64,000 nucleotides of DNA. Origin: Acidobacteriota bacterium (GTDB lineage Bacteria; Acidobacteriota; UBA6911). The first letter of the stretch is position 1; each line of letters starts with the position of its first letter. The stretch spans positions 5,216,001 to 5,280,000 of the forward strand of contig OY761556.1 of assembly GCA_963664705.1 (NCBI GenBank), given 5' to 3'. Of the stretch, positions 15,612-21,876 are shown piece after piece. Made by a program: the position numbers and the translations under genes. The notes beneath the pieces are model-generated. The model saw nothing but the letters and a program-made list of their open reading frames with translations, ran no database searches and was not told the DNA's origin.

Positions 15612-17426
15612 CTAATCGGGCTGGCTGCCGGTTGGAATCAGCCGAGTTGCGGAATTCCAGGCCCGGATGCGTGCGGCATCCGGTGGATTGAGAAAGTGGA
15701 AGTTGTATCGCTTGTTGTTCCGCGTCTTGATTGCCAATTCACTCCCTTTGAGATCGAACATCCGGAGCCCTTTGTAGGATTCATACAGGCTGTGATCCGT
15801 TTCCGATGTTCTGAACTCCATCCCTTCTTCCGTAAACTGAATCGTTCCCCGGCAGCTCGAAAATGTATGTTTGTGCTCCACAGGGAATGGAACTTTGAGG
15901 ATTGAATTTGCCTGGGCTCGATCCTGAAGATCCTGGATCATGGCCTGGAGCTTTTCCGGGCTATATTTATCCGCCCCGCCCAGCTCCTTGGCTTTCCGGA
16001 GATGCTCCTGTGCTTTGGCAAAATTGTTGCGGTGGTAATCGTAAAGCAATCCAAGATTCAGATGGGCCAGGGCATTATTTGGATTGAGGGACAGGCATTT
16101 TTCAAACTGAAGAATGGCGGTATCCAGCTGTTTCTGGTTTTGATAGCTCGCGCCCATATAGAAATAGGCTTCGTCGCTGTTCGGCTCGTATTTCAGGTAC
16201 TCTGCCCAGTCATCAATTGAGTTCTGATAGGCACCCGATCGGAAGGATGAAAGCGCATTCTGACGCAGGGATGTAATCTTCTTGCGCAGTTCCTGCTGCT
16301 CACTGTTCTTCTGTGCGCGCTGCTGCTCCTGTTGCGTCTGTTCCGCGATCTTCGATTCGACCATGGCAAGGCGGCCCTTGCTGTAGGTGTCTTCGGGAAA
16401 ATACTGCACCATCAGACCGAAATCATTGCGGGCACCCTGCCAGTCGGAAGCGGCGATTTTGGTATCGCCTCGCGTCTGCAGCAGTTCCTTCAAATGAGCA
16501 AAGGCTTCCCGCACATAACCGTTATTCTTATCCAGGCGCTGGATACTGCGGATAGCATCCAATGCATTATCTTTATCCGGCGGCACGAGGCTGCCGGCTT
16601 TCAGTGCAGCATCCGCCCGGGCTTTCCAATCCTGGATTTGCTTTTCTCGATCCTGCACGCTTGCATCCAGCTTGGCCGTGACATCCGCAAGCCGTTCCCC
16701 GATCGAGATGTCGTTTGGCAGCAGCAAGAGCAGATTCTTGTACTGCTTTTCGGATTCGAGCCAATCCTCGCGCGCATAGGCAAGCTCGGCCAGCCGCCGT
16801 ACCGTCTCACTCAACTTGGTTTTGACTTCGATGGCATAGCTGTTTGCAGGATCAATAGCCAGAATCTTTTCCGCAAAATACAGGACGTTATAGTCGTCCG
16901 GCGGAGGCAAAAGTATGTTTTCCTTTGCTGCGGTATCCAGCTTTTTGCGCCACGCTTCGACTTCGGCAAGTTGCTCATTGGTCAGTTGGGGCACAATCGG
17001 CTCCATGCTCCAGTGCATGGTTTCCGCCGCATACGGCATCACGGTGACCGGCTGAATCAGATCCTTGAAGCCTTCCTTTGTGCTTTTCAGCTGATGTGCA
17101 CCGCTCCGAAGATCGGTGATCGTGATTGGGGAGGCCCCTTTCAACTTGCCGTCGAGAAATATAAATGCACCCGGGGGAGTCGTCTTGATCGTCAGGCTTC
17201 CGTATTTTGGTTTCCAGTATTGATACAGGAAGGCGGCGGCAAAGCCCACGACCGCACACAGCACAAGGATAGTGATCCCCAACATCAGGGTCCTTATCCT
17301 GATCTGGGCATGTTTTTGCGGAGATGGCGGGTCGACAAGTCTGCCTGCACCCATGGCCGTGCCATCTGCAGGGCAAAACTCGAACGAATCCGGATAGGAA
17401 TTACCGCATTCAGGACACTCTCTCAT
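15612..17426 (-). CDS. Zn-ribbon / TM / PEGA / TPR protein
   Basis: CPECG..FCPADG, one TM helix, PEGA (L.IKTTPPGA.IFLDG..G.SP), TPRs (EAYFYMGASY, AHLNLGLLY). Start is 17426 or 17447. Confidence 0.8.
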   Translation of the reverse strand: MRECPECGNSYPDSFEFCPADGTAMGAGRLVDPPSPQKHAQIRIRTLMLGITILVLCAVVGFAAAFLYQYWKPKYGSLTIKTTPPGAFIFLDGKLKGASPITITDLRSGAHQLKSTKEGFKDLIQPVTVMPYAAETMHWSMEPIVPQLTNEQLAEVEAWRKKLDTAAKENILLPPPDDYNVLYFAEKILAIDPANSYAIEVKTKLSETVRRLAELAYAREDWLESEKQYKNLLLLLPNDISIGERLADVTAKLDASVQDREKQIQDWKARADAALKAGSLVPPDKDNALDAIRSIQRLDKNNGYVREAFAHLKELLQTRGDTKIAASDWQGARNDFGLMVQYFPEDTYSKGRLAMVESKIAEQTQQEQQRAQKNSEQQELRKKITSLRQNALSSFRSGAYQNSIDDWAEYLKYEPNSDEAYFYMGASYQNQKQLDTAILQFEKCLSLNPNNALAHLNLGLLYDYHRNNFAKAQEHLRKAKELGGADKYSPEKLQAMIQDLQDRAQANSILKVPFPVEHKHTFSSCRGTIQFTEEGMEFRTSETDHSLYESYKGLRMFDLKGSELAIKTRNNKRYNFHFLNPPDAARIRAWNSATRLIPTGSQPD

Positions 17427-17471
17427 CGGAGTAGCACGATAACACATCGTGCGCTGATCAACAAATATCAG

Positions 17472-17520: not shown

Positions 17521-18897
17521 CTAGGAGAAGCTAAATTTGGAACGGGACAGAAATTCGCCTGTTCCGGGACGGCCCATGACCTTGCCTTCGCGGGCAATCA
17601 CCCGACCGCGCTGGAGGACGAGCCAGGTCGATCCCCGGACCTTCATCCCTTCATAGGGAGTATAGTCCGATCGGGACAGAGCCATGGACTTCGATATTAC
17701 AAACTCCGCCTTTGGATCAAAAATGACCATGTCGGCATCACTGCCTACTGCAAGCGTTCCCTTGCGAGGAAACAGTCCGAACATTCTGGCCGGAGTTGTG
17801 CAGGCCAGATCGACAAGCTTGTTCGGAGAAATTTTTCCCGTATGAACTCCGGCGGCGCAAAGAAGCGAAAGCCGGTCCTGAATCCCCGGGATACCACGCG
17901 GAGCCTGGGTAAAATTCTCTTTGCCTAGATTCTTCTGCCCGGCATAGTTGAAAGCGCGATGATCGCTTCCAACCGCATGAATGTCTCCACTCGAGATCGC
18001 CTTCCAGAGAACATCCCCGTGCCAGGCAGGACGTAATGGAGGCGTGCAATAGTACTTAATGCCCTCAGACTCTTCATAACGATCGCTCGTCAGCATCAGG
18101 TATTGCGGGCAAGTTTCCGCGTACACCGCCTGTCCACGATCGCGAGCCGCTTTGATTTTTTCGATCGCATGGGCAGAGGAAAGGCTTGTGAGATAAATGG
18201 GAGCTTTGGCCATTTCGGCAATGCTGAGCGCACGGGCGGTTGCCTGCGCCTCCACCTCGGGCGGCCTTGCGCCTGTGATAAACCTCGGAAGCGTCTTCCC
18301 TTCAGCCACCAGCCGGCGCAAAAACAGGTCAATGATCTCACCATTCTCAGCATGCAGGCACGGCAGTGCTCCGGCATTCGTCACGCACTGAAGGAACTCC
18401 AACAACTGAGAATCGTTGACGTGCCGTTCGCCGTTCCCATCCAGTCTGACATGGAAGCTGGTTACCCCTGCTTCCACCATCGCCGGAATCTCGCCGAGAA
18501 TACCGGCATTGACCTCGCACACGGCGATGTGGAGCCCATAGTCCACAATCGCTCGAGTGGCAGCCTTGGTCTTCCAGTCCTCAAGCGTTTGCGCAAGCGT
18601 TGTACCCGGAACCTGTTCCGCGTAATCCACCACCGTGGTGGTGCCGCCGGCCGCCGCGGCAGCAGTTCCTGTCTCAAAATCGTCGACAGTGGTCATTCCA
18701 TCGCACTGCGCATCCATGTGGGTATGGACATCCACCGCACCCGGCAAAACCCATTTGTCTGCTGCATCGATGATCTCGCTGGCAATCTTGGATATCTCTC
18801 TCCCGATTTCAGAAACAATCCCGTTTTTCACCAGCACGTCGGCTTTGTACATGTCGCTAGCCGTTATGATGGTCCCATTCTTAATCAAAGTCGTCAT
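17521..18897 (-). CDS. hydA: Dihydropyrimidinase/D-hydantoinase homologue with substituted metal ligands
   Basis: LIKNG, PGAVDVHTH, AAAGGTTT, HAENG, ETCPQY, GSDH, KGTLAVGSDAD. The canonical SFK reads SFH and the VH reads TS. Confidence 0.85.
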   Translation of the reverse strand: MTTLIKNGTIITASDMYKADVLVKNGIVSEIGREISKIASEIIDAADKWVLPGAVDVHTHMDAQCDGMTTVDDFETGTAAAAAGGTTTVVDYAEQVPGTTLAQTLEDWKTKAATRAIVDYGLHIAVCEVNAGILGEIPAMVEAGVTSFHVRLDGNGERHVNDSQLLEFLQCVTNAGALPCLHAENGEIIDLFLRRLVAEGKTLPRFITGARPPEVEAQATARALSIAEMAKAPIYLTSLSSAHAIEKIKAARDRGQAVYAETCPQYLMLTSDRYEESEGIKYYCTPPLRPAWHGDVLWKAISSGDIHAVGSDHRAFNYAGQKNLGKENFTQAPRGIPGIQDRLSLLCAAGVHTGKISPNKLVDLACTTPARMFGLFPRKGTLAVGSDADMVIFDPKAEFVISKSMALSRSDYTPYEGMKVRGSTWLVLQRGRVIAREGKVMGRPGTGEFLSRSKFSFS

Positions 18898-19021
18898 AAT
18901 CTCTCCAGCATCAATCCCGAGAGTTGTTCAGGAATATCGACAAGTAAAAATACGAATCGAGCCAAGATCGCAGTGAACAGCTGCGGAAATCCCGTGCGAA
19001 AAAAGAGCCTAGCTGCAGAAT

Positions 19022-19530
19022 GTTTCAATCGCCCCGCACACCTGCCGCAGGGCGGTATCTAGTACAACCAGATCTTGCCGTGCTCTGCTTCACCATTTGC
19101 CGGCGGTCTGATATTGCCGATTTTCGTCACAGCTCGAGTATGGAGAGGGCACGCGCATCCGGTATCCCTTTCCGGGCTTTCCACCGGATGAAGCGGGGCA
19201 TTCGGCCCATTTTCCCCTCATCCTTAACTCCACTATTCGTGTCGGTACTCCGCTATCTCGGAGATTTCACTACGATCGAAATTCCTCCGTTTTGGCGCGG
19301 CGTCCATGGCGCCCGCACCCTTTATTGGCGGCAGCCACTCCAGGCCGCCGCAAAACCTAATGTCCAAGGGTGAAAATAAGCAACACCACCCTCAATCCCT
19401 TCGGTCTGCCAGGGGATAAGGCCTGCCTGTAATCGCACTCTTTCGAATCGAATCGGACCGAAGGCGGGGATTTCGGCGATTTGCGCGGCCACTCTGAACC
19501 GCGTACCCCTGCTCGTTTTACGAGCAACCG
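19022..19530 (-). ncRNA. Candidate large (~500 nt) structured non-coding RNA, family not recognised
   Basis: At least eight hairpins, several closing only with G-U pairs on the minus strand. One GAAA tetraloop, a long-range AAUCGCC/GGCGAUU pairing, an upstream extended -10, a downstream U-run and no credible ORF. Confidence 0.6.
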
Positions 19531-19535
19531 TGCTG

Positions 19536-19544
19536 ATTATAACA
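19536..19544 (-). promoter_or_regulatory. Extended -10 promoter (TGnTATAAT) driving the candidate RNA
   Basis: Minus strand reads TGTTATAAT, about 7 nt before the first hairpin. The -35 match is poor. Confidence 0.6.
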
Positions 19545-19689: not shown

Positions 19690-21339
19690 ATGGACTCCAC
19701 ACCCAGAATCAAAGCGCCTCGCGGCAACCAACTCCAATGCAAAGGATGGCAGCAGGAAGCTGCCATGCGGATGCTGATGAACAATCTGGACGAAGAGGTG
19801 GCAGAGCGTCCTCAGGACCTTGTAGTCTATGGTGGCAGCGGCAAAGCTGCGCGCAACTGGAGCTGTTACTCATCCATCATTCGCTCTTTGCAGCAGCTGG
19901 AAAATGATGAGACCCTTCTGGTCCAATCCGGCAAACCCGTCGGCATATTCCGGACACACGAGTATTCCCCGCGAGTGCTGATCGCCAACTCAAACCTGGT
20001 AGGCCGCTGGGCAGACTGGGAGGAGTTCCGCCGCCTGGAAGCCCTGGGGTTAATGATGTATGGGCAGATGACCGCAGGCAGCTGGATTTATATCGGCAGC
20101 CAGGGGATTGTGCAGGGGACCTATGAAACTTTCGCTGCAGCGGCTCGCCGTCACTTTGCAGGAACGCTGCAAGGCAGGATCCTGGTATCCGGCGGATTGG
20201 GCGGCATGGGAGGAGCTCAGCCCCTAGCGGCCACCATGGCCGGCGCTGCTTTTCTGGGCATAGAAGTGGATCCGGCCCGAATTCAGAAACGAATCCAAAC
20301 GGGATACTGCGACAGGATAAGCTTCAGTCTCGAAGAAGCGCTCGCACTTGTAGAACAGGCCGCCGCCGGAAAAAAGCCCCTCTCGGTGGGACTGGTTGGA
20401 AACTGCGCGGAAGTACTTCCCGAACTTGTGCGGCGCGGTTTTGTCCCGGACCTCCTGACCGATCAGACCAGTGCGCATGATCCACTTAACGGGTACATAC
20501 CCGCGGGGATCTCATTAACCGACGCGGAAGCCCTGCGACGCGATAATCCCGGCGAATACCTTCAACGCAGCATGGCATCCATCGCCACGCATGTACGTGC
20601 CATGCTGGAGCTGCAGGCAAAGGGAGCCATTACCTTCGACTATGGAAACAACCTTCGCGGGCAGGCTTTGAAAGCGGGCGTGGCAAACGCCCTTGATTTT
20701 CCCGGCTTTGTGCCGGCATATATTCGCCCGCTGTTTTGTGAAGGACGCGGTCCTTTTCGATGGGTCGCGCTCTCGGGCGATCCGGAGGATATTGCTCTTA
20801 CCGATGCGCTGGTTCTGGAGATGTTCTCAGAAAACGAAGAACTGTGCCGATGGATCCGGATGGCAAAGGCGAGGATTCGCTTTCAGGGTTTGCCCGCACG
20901 CATCTGCTGGCTGGGCTACGGCGAGCGGGCTGCCCTGGCTCTCCGGATGAATGATCTGGTTGCCGGCGGCAAACTGCATGCGCCCATCGTCATCGGTCGC
21001 GATCACCTGGATTGCGGTTCCGTGGCGTCGCCTTACCGTGAGACGGAAGGCATGAAGGATACGTCCGACGCGGTCGCCGACTGGCCGATCCTGAATGCAT
21101 TGTTAAACACAGCAAGCGGCGCATCCTGGGTTTCATTTCATCATGGCGGCGGAGTTGGAATGGGGTATTCTCTCCATGCAGGACAGGTCACTGTGGCCGA
21201 TGGCACAAACGCCATGCGGGACAGGATTGAACGGGTGATGACGAATGATCCCGGGATCGGTGTCGCTCGCCACGCGGATGCGGGGTATGAGGAGGCTCAG
21301 GAATTCGCCAGAATCCGAGGCATCAGAATTCCAGGCTGA
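19690..21339 (+). CDS. hutU: Urocanate hydratase
   Basis: [50 protein letters not shown]. Confidence 0.98.
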
Positions 21340-21467
21340 GAGCCCTCTCGCTTTATAGCACCGGACTTGCCCGGCTTTTGGGGAGATCTGAATATCCGGC
21401 AAAAATGTGGGCTAATTTGATCAAATCAGGTTCCATAAATAAATGGCGTGATTAGTTTTTATATTTG

Positions 21468-21736
21468 AACCGCGAAGACCTCGAAGACCGCAAAGATTTT
21501 TTGGCTCATTTTGCTGCTGGGCAATGAGCTAGTGTGATGGATAGGAAAGAAGTTGCTCATCATATCGTCGATTCAGCGGTGGCAATCCATACAGCGCCAG
21601 GATTGTTGGAGTCCGTTTATCAGCGGTGCTTAATGTGTGGAGCATCATGGATGGAATCCACCGTATGATCTGGCGAGAACGATAACCGTAAAACCTGCAA
21701 AATATTTTCTTTGCGGTCTTCGAGGTCTTCGCGGTT
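21468..21736. mobile_element. Mini-cassette bounded by perfect 29-bp inverted repeats with internal 9-nt periodicity
   Basis: aaccgcgaagacctcgaagaccgcaaaga (21468-21496) and its exact reverse complement (21708-21736). Confidence 0.65.
21537..21685 (+). pseudogene. Internally deleted GxxExxY (PDDEXK_3) family gene
   Basis: MDRKEVAHHIVDSAVAIHTAPGLLESVYQRCL.. stops at 21668. A shifted frame gives IMDGIHRMIWRER*, resembling the family C-terminus. Confidence 0.8.
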
Positions 21737-21876
21737 AATGGGGTTACTATTCGGTCAAGTCAGATGCGGGGTATGAGGAGGCTCAGGAATTCGCCGGAAT
21801 CCGAGGCATCAGAATTCCAGGCTGAGAGCCCTCTCGCTTTATATCAGCCAATTCAAACAGGACTCACGAAACTGAA

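Follow-up and report, generated by a model that had tools for sequence, protein, structure and literature searches.

A long leader with predicted helices upstream of a dihydropyrimidinase-like gene in Acidobacteriota that appears to derive in part from a dead aminotransferase gene

Introduction

What kind of RNA, if any, is encoded ahead of a dihydropyrimidinase-like gene in an Acidobacteriota bacterium (GCA_963664705.1, contig OY761556.1), and where did it come from? The locus lies in a 64,000-nt stretch of this contig (the window), to which all coordinates refer. An inspection of the letters of this DNA (the sequence-only reading) had noticed a promoter box on the minus strand followed by eight stems and a run of six U residues, and had proposed a stand-alone RNA of about 500 nt in the class of OLE and ROOL, with a very long structured leader as the fallback. 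The origin of new structured RNAs in bacteria is an open question; traceable cases are few and are mostly short sRNAs from gene ends. We describe here a multi-helix leader of several hundred nucleotides that can be aligned base by base to its parent gene.

Results

The locus and its neighbours

The genes and signals around the element are the following.

19690..21339, plus strand: hutU, divergent from the leader; in sister genera it holds the same place relative to an intact aminotransferase gene
19536..19544, minus strand: extended -10 promoter box (TGnTATAAT), TGTTATAAT; no -35 element found
18898..19530, minus strand: untranslated leader of the hydA-like gene, the whole element, about 630 nt
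17521..18897, minus strand: dihydropyrimidinase-like gene (hydA*), above the TIGR02033 cut-off
15612..17447, minus strand: PEGA/TPR protein gene, in the same direction and 73 nt past hydA*

The PEGA/TPR gene and hydA* are likely to form one operon. In sister genera a divergent hutU and the promoter are followed by a class-III aminotransferase gene (PF00202), hydA and a TPR gene, sometimes with an extra ORF between the aminotransferase and hydA that we take, by its sequence motifs, to be aldehyde dehydrogenase-like. The window keeps this order minus the aminotransferase. Two of the six metal ligands are changed in HydA*: the carbamylated Lys is replaced by His149 and a β-metal His by Ser238 (residue table; alignment to 1k1d). 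The second β-metal His is absent from all family rows of at least 60% identity that cover the site, and the carbamylated Lys is mostly gone in the genus. The protein is nevertheless 75-94% identical among relatives while synonymous sites saturate. HydA* is likely a conserved bacterial pseudo-dihydropyrimidinase, judged by these residues, kept for another role and reminiscent of the animal CRMP proteins.

Elsewhere in the genome we found true RNase P RNA and tmRNA loci and two full-length rho genes (G000:C1:643143-644378 and 3893937-3895178, both above the TIGR00767 cut-off). On the far side of hutU, an 84-nt direct repeat (98%; 21277-21360 and 21763-21846) duplicates the 3' end of that gene. 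Between the two copies, perfect 29-nt inverted repeats (21468-21496 and 21708-21736) flank a broken reading frame, presumably of the GxxExxY proteins; one arm of the inverted repeat has 142 blast matches in the genome and thus belongs to a repeated element. Contigs from two DNA-type runs were identical to the window across the leader and gave no new variants.

Promoter and extent of the leader

The box TGTTATAAT lies on the minus strand at 19544-19536, where the sequence-only reading had placed it, and is conserved in homologues: it is kept ahead of long and short leaders, and ahead of the intact aminotransferase gene in sister genera. A sigma70 scan, which requires a -35 element, gave no entry for it. 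From the box we infer a start site near 19530-19529. The run of six U residues, proposed as the end of the RNA, is present at 19004-18999, but the terminator scan predicted none there, only 1 of the 13 aligned leaders has the run, and further downstream there is a helix arm that is conserved (18977-18966). We therefore treat the element as a leader that runs on into hydA* and measures about 630 nt, and not as a 500-nt gene. Its longest stop-free frame has 68 codons, and no conserved uORF peptide was found among the aligned leaders.

The element belongs to no family that we could recognize, as had been suspected: in the window region Rfam returned two weak matches at E 4.2, neither reaching the gathering score, and at 20 homologue or hydA loci it returned none. 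The families covered include RNase P RNA, tmRNA, SRP RNA, OLE, GOLLD, ROOL, HEARO and the riboswitches. ARAGORN found no genes in the window. A CRISPR-DR9-like hairpin at 19022-19058 (minus strand; a 37-mer ending in ATTGAAAC; E 4.2) is single copy and is not kept in the nearest relative, L116, and was set aside as a chance match.

Distribution among relatives

A blastn search of 61 genomes found short true matches in two relatives, both upstream of the same hydA-like gene; a 28-nt match in G044 lies in an unrelated context and was rejected as chance. DNA upstream of hydA orthologues was then taken from 51 family genomes and two collection scans, which gave 75 distinct upstream regions. Those from the genus of the window have the extended -10 box and a GGAG ribosome site in common, at a spacing of about 40 to 800 nt. 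Eleven distinct, mutually related long forms belong to two clades (A and B) of a quick HydA tree, with support of 96 and 99; both clades also include members that are truncated or carry internal deletions.

A covariance model of these 11 long forms gave full-length matches in 4 of the 30 genomes from the genus and partial ones in 5 others, at hydA in every case. Among 21 other family genomes it gave two weak matches, one in coding sequence and one at another promoter, and among 150 phylum genomes four weak matches, all in aminotransferase coding sequence. Every full-length match sits at hydA; no copy of the domain was found away from hydA* in the 51 family and 150 phylum genomes. Most relatives have leaders of 40-230 nt in the same gene context. 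The element is restricted to the genus, and relatives have repeatedly lost all or part of the leader. A mobile or repeated element was considered and rejected: the leader is single copy, phages gave one weak 32-nt blastn match, plasmids gave none, and the viral-contig pattern none.

A separate clade (L021, L022, L024, L026 and L147) has a leader of constant length, 233-234 nt, whose 5' part has no match to the long-form profile. This is possibly another stabilised relic.

The leader and the aminotransferase gene

Two parts of the upstream half are needed here.

19484..19526, minus strand: two promoter-proximal hairpins (19526-19510 and 19503-19484), seen again in homologues of clade A and in some of the short leaders, but weak among those of clade B
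19204..19378 (about), minus strand: frameshifted relic of a class-III aminotransferase gene, from the ARDIEE to the DEVQTG codons, on the same strand as the old gene

In other genera the covariance model, built from leaders only, matched the coding sequence of aminotransferase genes that lie ahead of hydA. When 13 leaders were made into a profile, it matched all 10 gene units, with scores of 30-47 bits; the best of 200 codon-shuffled controls scored 2.5 bits. A profile of the clade A leaders, which include that of the window, matched 5 of the 10. Run the other way, the gene-unit profile alone matched two long leaders (E 5.8e-9 and 1.2e-7; 37 targets) and gave no match to the leader of the window itself, so that the link runs via the homologues. 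Profile against profile, about 205 leader positions are colinear with the gene on its coding strand (score 62.8; the highest of 12 shuffles reached 13.6); in the window the relic is 54% identical to an intact gene over 169 columns. Alignment of the first ~150 nt (~180 profile positions) and of the last ~300 to the old gene is not above shuffles. The last 30 nt of the leader match the old spacer, and under the arms of helix P3 (described below) there are tentative colinear hints of Phe-Gly-Gly and Phe-Thr-Asn-Ser-Gly-Thr-Glu codons. Taken as sequence evidence, these matches make it almost certain that the middle of the leader originates from the aminotransferase gene.

Two indels are common to 11/11 leaders and a third is found in 9/11. 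Identity by old codon position is flat in the leaders (0.59/0.60/0.56), as opposed to 0.91/0.95/0.58 in the genes. The shared indels and the flat profile argue that the sequence has been non-coding since the common ancestor; in this model, the gene would have died once, in an ancestor of the genus, and would not have coded since. An intact orthologue (75-95% identity) was found in 8 of the 21 family genomes that belong to other genera and in 0 of the 30 from the genus itself, some genomes being incomplete, and the aminotransferase matches of the genus genomes are paralogues of 43-47% identity only.

Other remains of the same aminotransferase, upstream of hydA at L136, L203, L206, L135, L164, L140, L139, L158 and L063, are independent pseudogenes or relics at varied stages of decay, carried by other lineages of the family. 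The reverse pattern of loss also occurs: at G072:C42:17330-18697 a hydA orthologue with four TGA stops directly follows an intact aminotransferase gene. Within one family the locus is seen with the gene intact, as a young pseudogene, as an old relic and cleanly deleted.

The promoter-proximal hairpins gave no significant match to the aminotransferase. At an unrelated locus (L212:1561-1632, minus strand; G073:C25), a -10-like box and about 70 nt resemble the 5' end of the leader (21.8 bits); the genome concerned retains an intact aminotransferase-hydA pair. This match was located by the model and is therefore not independent; it may hint that the promoter-proximal part was derived from another locus.

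These results bear directly on the ancient, stand-alone RNA of about 500 nt, ending at the U run, that was first proposed. The promoter box, the many stems and the absence of an Rfam match are what such an RNA would show, yet its core comes from a protein gene, its matches lie only upstream of the hydA-like gene within a narrow range, it is often deleted in close relatives, no terminator is predicted, the U run is confined to 1 of 13 leaders, a helix arm lies beyond it, and the 3' half is not conserved. We regard this explanation as highly improbable. The fallback, a very long structured leader, is the idea that the data support.

Sequence conservation

Between the window and its relatives, identity at four-fold sites of the neighbouring genes is 0.24-0.49, where 0.30 is expected at random. 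For the relic core the values are 0.77 (nearest relative), 0.66 (clade A) and 0.50 (between clades), over a shuffled baseline of 0.35; for the 3' part they fall to 0.45 and 0.37 in the latter two comparisons. Conservation is uneven within one leader: against four clade A homologues, the 5' part gives z 8.9-23.8 and the middle of the 3' part z 2.5-3.8. Similarity of the 3' region to 9 of 10 homologues is near random (z -0.7 to 3.8).

18978..19203, minus strand: variable 3' region that the long-range helix would loop out; contains the 19190-19156 stem and the U run at 19004-18999

The 5' 300 nt are conserved above nearby synonymous sites; the intergenic control was contaminated by coding sequence. 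In the 5' domain, G/C positions change less often when paired (192/948) than when unpaired (87/267; 11 pairwise comparisons, not independent), whereas the 3' part has no such contrast (349/1101 and 114/322). A/U positions of the 5' domain show none either (0.30 paired, 0.31 unpaired), and an antisense fold gives a similar overall contrast between paired and unpaired positions. The excess of G over C is 0.07-0.21 in 10 long leaders and 0.02-0.09 in 12 intact genes; this skew could be mutational.

Conservation of this kind has to be weighed against a neutral relic, an old pseudogene eroding slowly in a relic-rich family, with hairpins inherited from codons or formed by chance. The family does hold relics of the same gene at all stages, the leader is frequently deleted, and even the 3' part is 0.64 identical to the nearest relative where four-fold sites are 0.45, so that a slower apparent rate than at synonymous sites may simply be usual for non-coding DNA here. 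A neutral relic would not, however, explain the uneven conservation along one leader or the lower rate of change at paired G/C, and pseudogenes are reported, in the accessible text of a Salmonella study, to be removed fast (PMC2916853). The helices described below divide in the same way: two of them are latent in the gene and the folding z-scores are weak in 6 of 10 leaders, but P3 and the long-range helix beat shuffles. We consider the neutral explanation improbable, though the strongest of the rivals.

The concentration of conservation in the first ~300 nt, together with the promoter box, could also suit a discrete RNA of about 300 nt, processed or terminated from the 5' domain and acting in trans as OxyS does, with hydA* a mere neighbour. 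There are published sRNAs from eroded genes, one of them from the gabT aminotransferase, in the accessible sections of one study (10.1101/2021.10.18.464853). No terminator is predicted, though, the most conserved motif pairs just upstream of hydA*, and the domain occurs nowhere else in the 51 family and 150 phylum genomes searched. A trans-acting RNA is unlikely, a little more so than the switch considered in the Discussion.

Folding and conserved helices

Folding of 19530-18990 against shuffles on both strands, a check that the sequence-only reading had proposed, gave a modest excess on the minus strand (z -1.64, 5/100 shuffles); since the plus strand also folds in excess (z -2.17, 4/100), folding alone does not pick a strand. 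The first 310 nt of the leader in the window gave z -3.10 and the whole leader up to the hydA start z -2.90 (0/20 shuffles). Over 10 long forms including that of the window, the first 310 nt ranged from z -3.27 to +1.84, being at or below -2 in four and unremarkable in six.

All eight stems of the sequence-only reading are where it had placed them. Its suggestion that they are under selection as RNA stood for some helices, above all P3, while the other listed stems are unsupported, shifting or not kept. The hairpins at 19526-19510, 19503-19484, 19393-19366 and 19351-19328 recur by eye in homologues with shifting registers; RNAalifold on the raw alignment recovered only 15 pairs, and these four hairpins were not among them. 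The CAUCCGGU/ACCGGAUG stem is not preserved in L116, and the 19289-19259 stem is displaced in the whole-leader fold. AAUCGCC (19481-19475) and GGCGAUU (19033-19027), proposed to join the two ends, are both present, but their pairing is not kept in the homologue alignment.

The hairpins and helices of the leader are as follows.

19398..19464, minus strand: helix P3, 7 conserved bp, 19463-19457 with 19405-19399 (CUUCGG/CCGAAG), enclosing a variable domain of ~50 nt
19328..19393, minus strand: hairpins 19393-19366 and 19351-19328, in homologues with variable registers, seen by eye without statistical support
19294..19319, minus strand: helix P8, G/C arms kept, loop variable; 85.5% of cells paired; latent in the Gly-Gly/Pro-Pro codons of the gene
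19266..19277, minus strand: 5' arm of the long-range helix, from the Ile-Val-Ala-Glu codons of the gene; the most conserved motif of the leader
19248..19263, minus strand: hairpin P9 (CUCCG/CGGAG); 87.3% of cells paired; both-sided changes at 2 pairs; latent in the gene
18966..18977, minus strand: 3' arm of the long-range helix; 12/12 bp with the 5' arm in the window
18901..18923, minus strand: hairpin predicted to cover GGAGAG, the Shine-Dalgarno sequence ahead of the hydA-like gene; probability that this sequence is paired 0.31-0.84 in 8 leaders

Near-duplicates (L117 and L025) were left out of the helix-conservation alignment, and two leaders without the core (L008 and L122) out of the shuffle and sliding tests. 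P3 is paired in 70/70 cells, with both-sided changes at 2 of its 7 pairs, and was reached by 0/400 conservation-preserving column shuffles; by run-length criteria it was matched in 2/300 shuffles at 90% and, as a 7-bp helix, in 18/300 at 80%. P8 and P9 are already predicted in the consensus of the aminotransferase gene, so that part of the pairing is inherited. Both-sided changes occur at 5 of the 26 pairs in the helix alignment test. Invariant positions lie mostly in helix arms; the loops are free to vary, and among unpaired nucleotides there is no conspicuous invariant motif.

The long-range helix (19277-19266 with 18977-18966) is absent from the sequence-only reading. It is the longest helix and ends about 70 nt ahead of the hydA start. 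Across 10 columns and 11 leaders 95/109 cells are paired, against 26-53% when the arms are slid, and 3/400 conservation-preserving shuffles did as well. Measured at its 5' edge, the best partner of the 5'-arm motif lies 77-84 nt ahead of the start codon in 8 of 13 rows; tested row by row, this partner was reached by 0/200 shuffles in four rows and was not above shuffles in 3 of the 13. The ensemble probability of the helix is 0.99 in the window and at least 0.72 in 5 of 8 leaders, and 0.47, 0.18 and 0.00 in the other three. Both-sided changes here are few: one column, plus two pairs, in the window and L116, in which A-U replaces G-C and which the alignment puts in the wrong place. The excess of G-U pairs over A-C mismatches, 4 to 0 in P3 and 11 to 5 in the long-range helix, favours the minus strand.

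The spacers of intact operons hold a similar motif, which pairs more weakly to the gene and beats 95% of shuffles in 3 of 17 rows; the motif pattern was derived from the sequences tested. In the outgroup spacer pairing, a C-G pair takes the place of the U-A pair of most leaders. At the arm site, the synonymous positions of intact genes are not constrained (0.44 vs 0.50). The 3' arm likely descends from this motif in the old aminotransferase-hydA spacer, and the weaker-pairing motif in intact operons suggests that a partial pairing probably predates the death of the gene and was tightened later. Taken together, the helices are probably under purifying selection.

Discussion

A stretch of RNA that is free of ribosomes is exposed to Rho and RNases. 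The death of the first gene of an operon would leave such a stretch ahead of the remaining genes, and two ways back to expression can be envisaged: the relic could be deleted, as it has been in most relatives, or folded, as in the long forms. In the latter, hairpins latent in codons and the partial pairing between the middle of the gene and the spacer would have been kept and then tightened, and the long-range helix would loop out the unconstrained 3' part, closing about 70 nt ahead of the start codon. Our preferred reading is that the element is the leader of the hydA*-TPR genes, that its middle is a relic of the aminotransferase gene and that the conserved helices likely keep the ribosome-free relic compact, which would spare the downstream genes termination by Rho and decay by RNases. 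We give this reading as a whole a probability of roughly 0.4. It would account for generic G/C helices with free loops, a closing helix, a mild excess of G over C and the tolerated loss of the leader; we count the two rho genes, the skew and the freely varying loops as points for it. From sequence we infer transcription, folding in the cell and shielding alike; given selection on the helices, shielding is somewhat favoured over sensing or action in trans.

A regulated switch in cis would use the same elements differently. A ligand, a protein or the ribosome would be sensed, and the long-range helix, a pairing with the 5' end and the Shine-Dalgarno hairpin would be toggled. The conserved motif does have mutually exclusive partners, the 5' end (94.9% of cells paired) or the 3' arm, and CUCCG can pair upstream or downstream; the Shine-Dalgarno sequence is predicted to be paired. 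However, the pairing with the 5' end has wobble changes only and a probability of 0.00 in 8/8 whole-leader ensembles, no loop motif is invariant, and most relatives manage the same gene context with leaders of 40-230 nt. In 7 of 13 rows a scan found a GTG within the 5' arm behind a GGAGG, a possible translation signal for such a switch, yet the distance is about 13 nt and the peptides are not conserved. We therefore regard a switch as unlikely. The same low standing applies to its most far-reaching form, in which the middle of a dead metabolic gene would have become a new riboswitch-like or ribosome-independent regulatory leader, a weak pairing between aminotransferase and spacer having been perfected to control a dihydropyrimidinase-like pseudo-enzyme and a TPR protein.

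The whole decay series within one family makes 'fold it or delete it' after the death of an operon gene directly testable. The locus also carries a caution for RNA motif discovery, as a convincing orphan RNA can be the relic of a gene.

Comparison with known systems

OLE, GOLLD, ROOL and HEARO are large bacterial ncRNAs with many stems. The leader is of their size class and has many predicted stems; unlike them (the comparison was made through Rfam only), it has no Rfam match, derives from a gene, is restricted to a genus, is unterminated and is often deleted. Riboswitches and other regulated leaders are located only upstream of one gene class, as this leader is.

Long-range mRNA pairings are known in translational coupling, with rplJL, infC-rpmI, atpHA and gnd as examples in the accessible text of one paper (PMC6728339). 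As in those systems, the helix joins the inside of an upstream frame to sequence before the next gene, and a weaker version is present in the spacers of the intact operon. In contrast to the systems described there, the 3' arm lies about 70 nt upstream of the start codon, clear of the initiation region, the upstream reading frame has been lost, and the intact genes are without synonymous constraint at the arm.

The closest published parallel is a set of sRNAs from eroded protein-coding genes, among them OxyS (peroxidase), STnc240 (gabT aminotransferase) and StyR-3 (Krieger et al., 10.1101/2021.10.18.464853 = PMC8825220). In the accessible sections of that paper, 10 of 62 overlaps are mid-gene, the least common class. 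Like those sRNAs, the leader has a covariance model that matches the coding strand of the gene at the same locus in relatives, keeps the promoter position of the parent gene and is restricted to a lineage. As far as the same sections go, it differs in being a mid-gene relic that remains joined to the next gene in the form of a ~630-nt leader, without a terminator and with several helices including a long-range one; it is known here from sequence. A literature search with few subscription papers in its scope returned no report of the element or of a leader from an eroded gene, and the supplements of Krieger et al. could list mid-gene cases.

Young pseudogenes are removed fast in Salmonella according to the accessible text of Kuo and Ochman (PMC2916853). 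The relic resembles ordinary bacterial pseudogenes in its frameshifts, its deletions and its lack of codon constraint. Unlike them, it has lasted in species between which synonymous sites are nearly saturated, and it is conserved above those sites.
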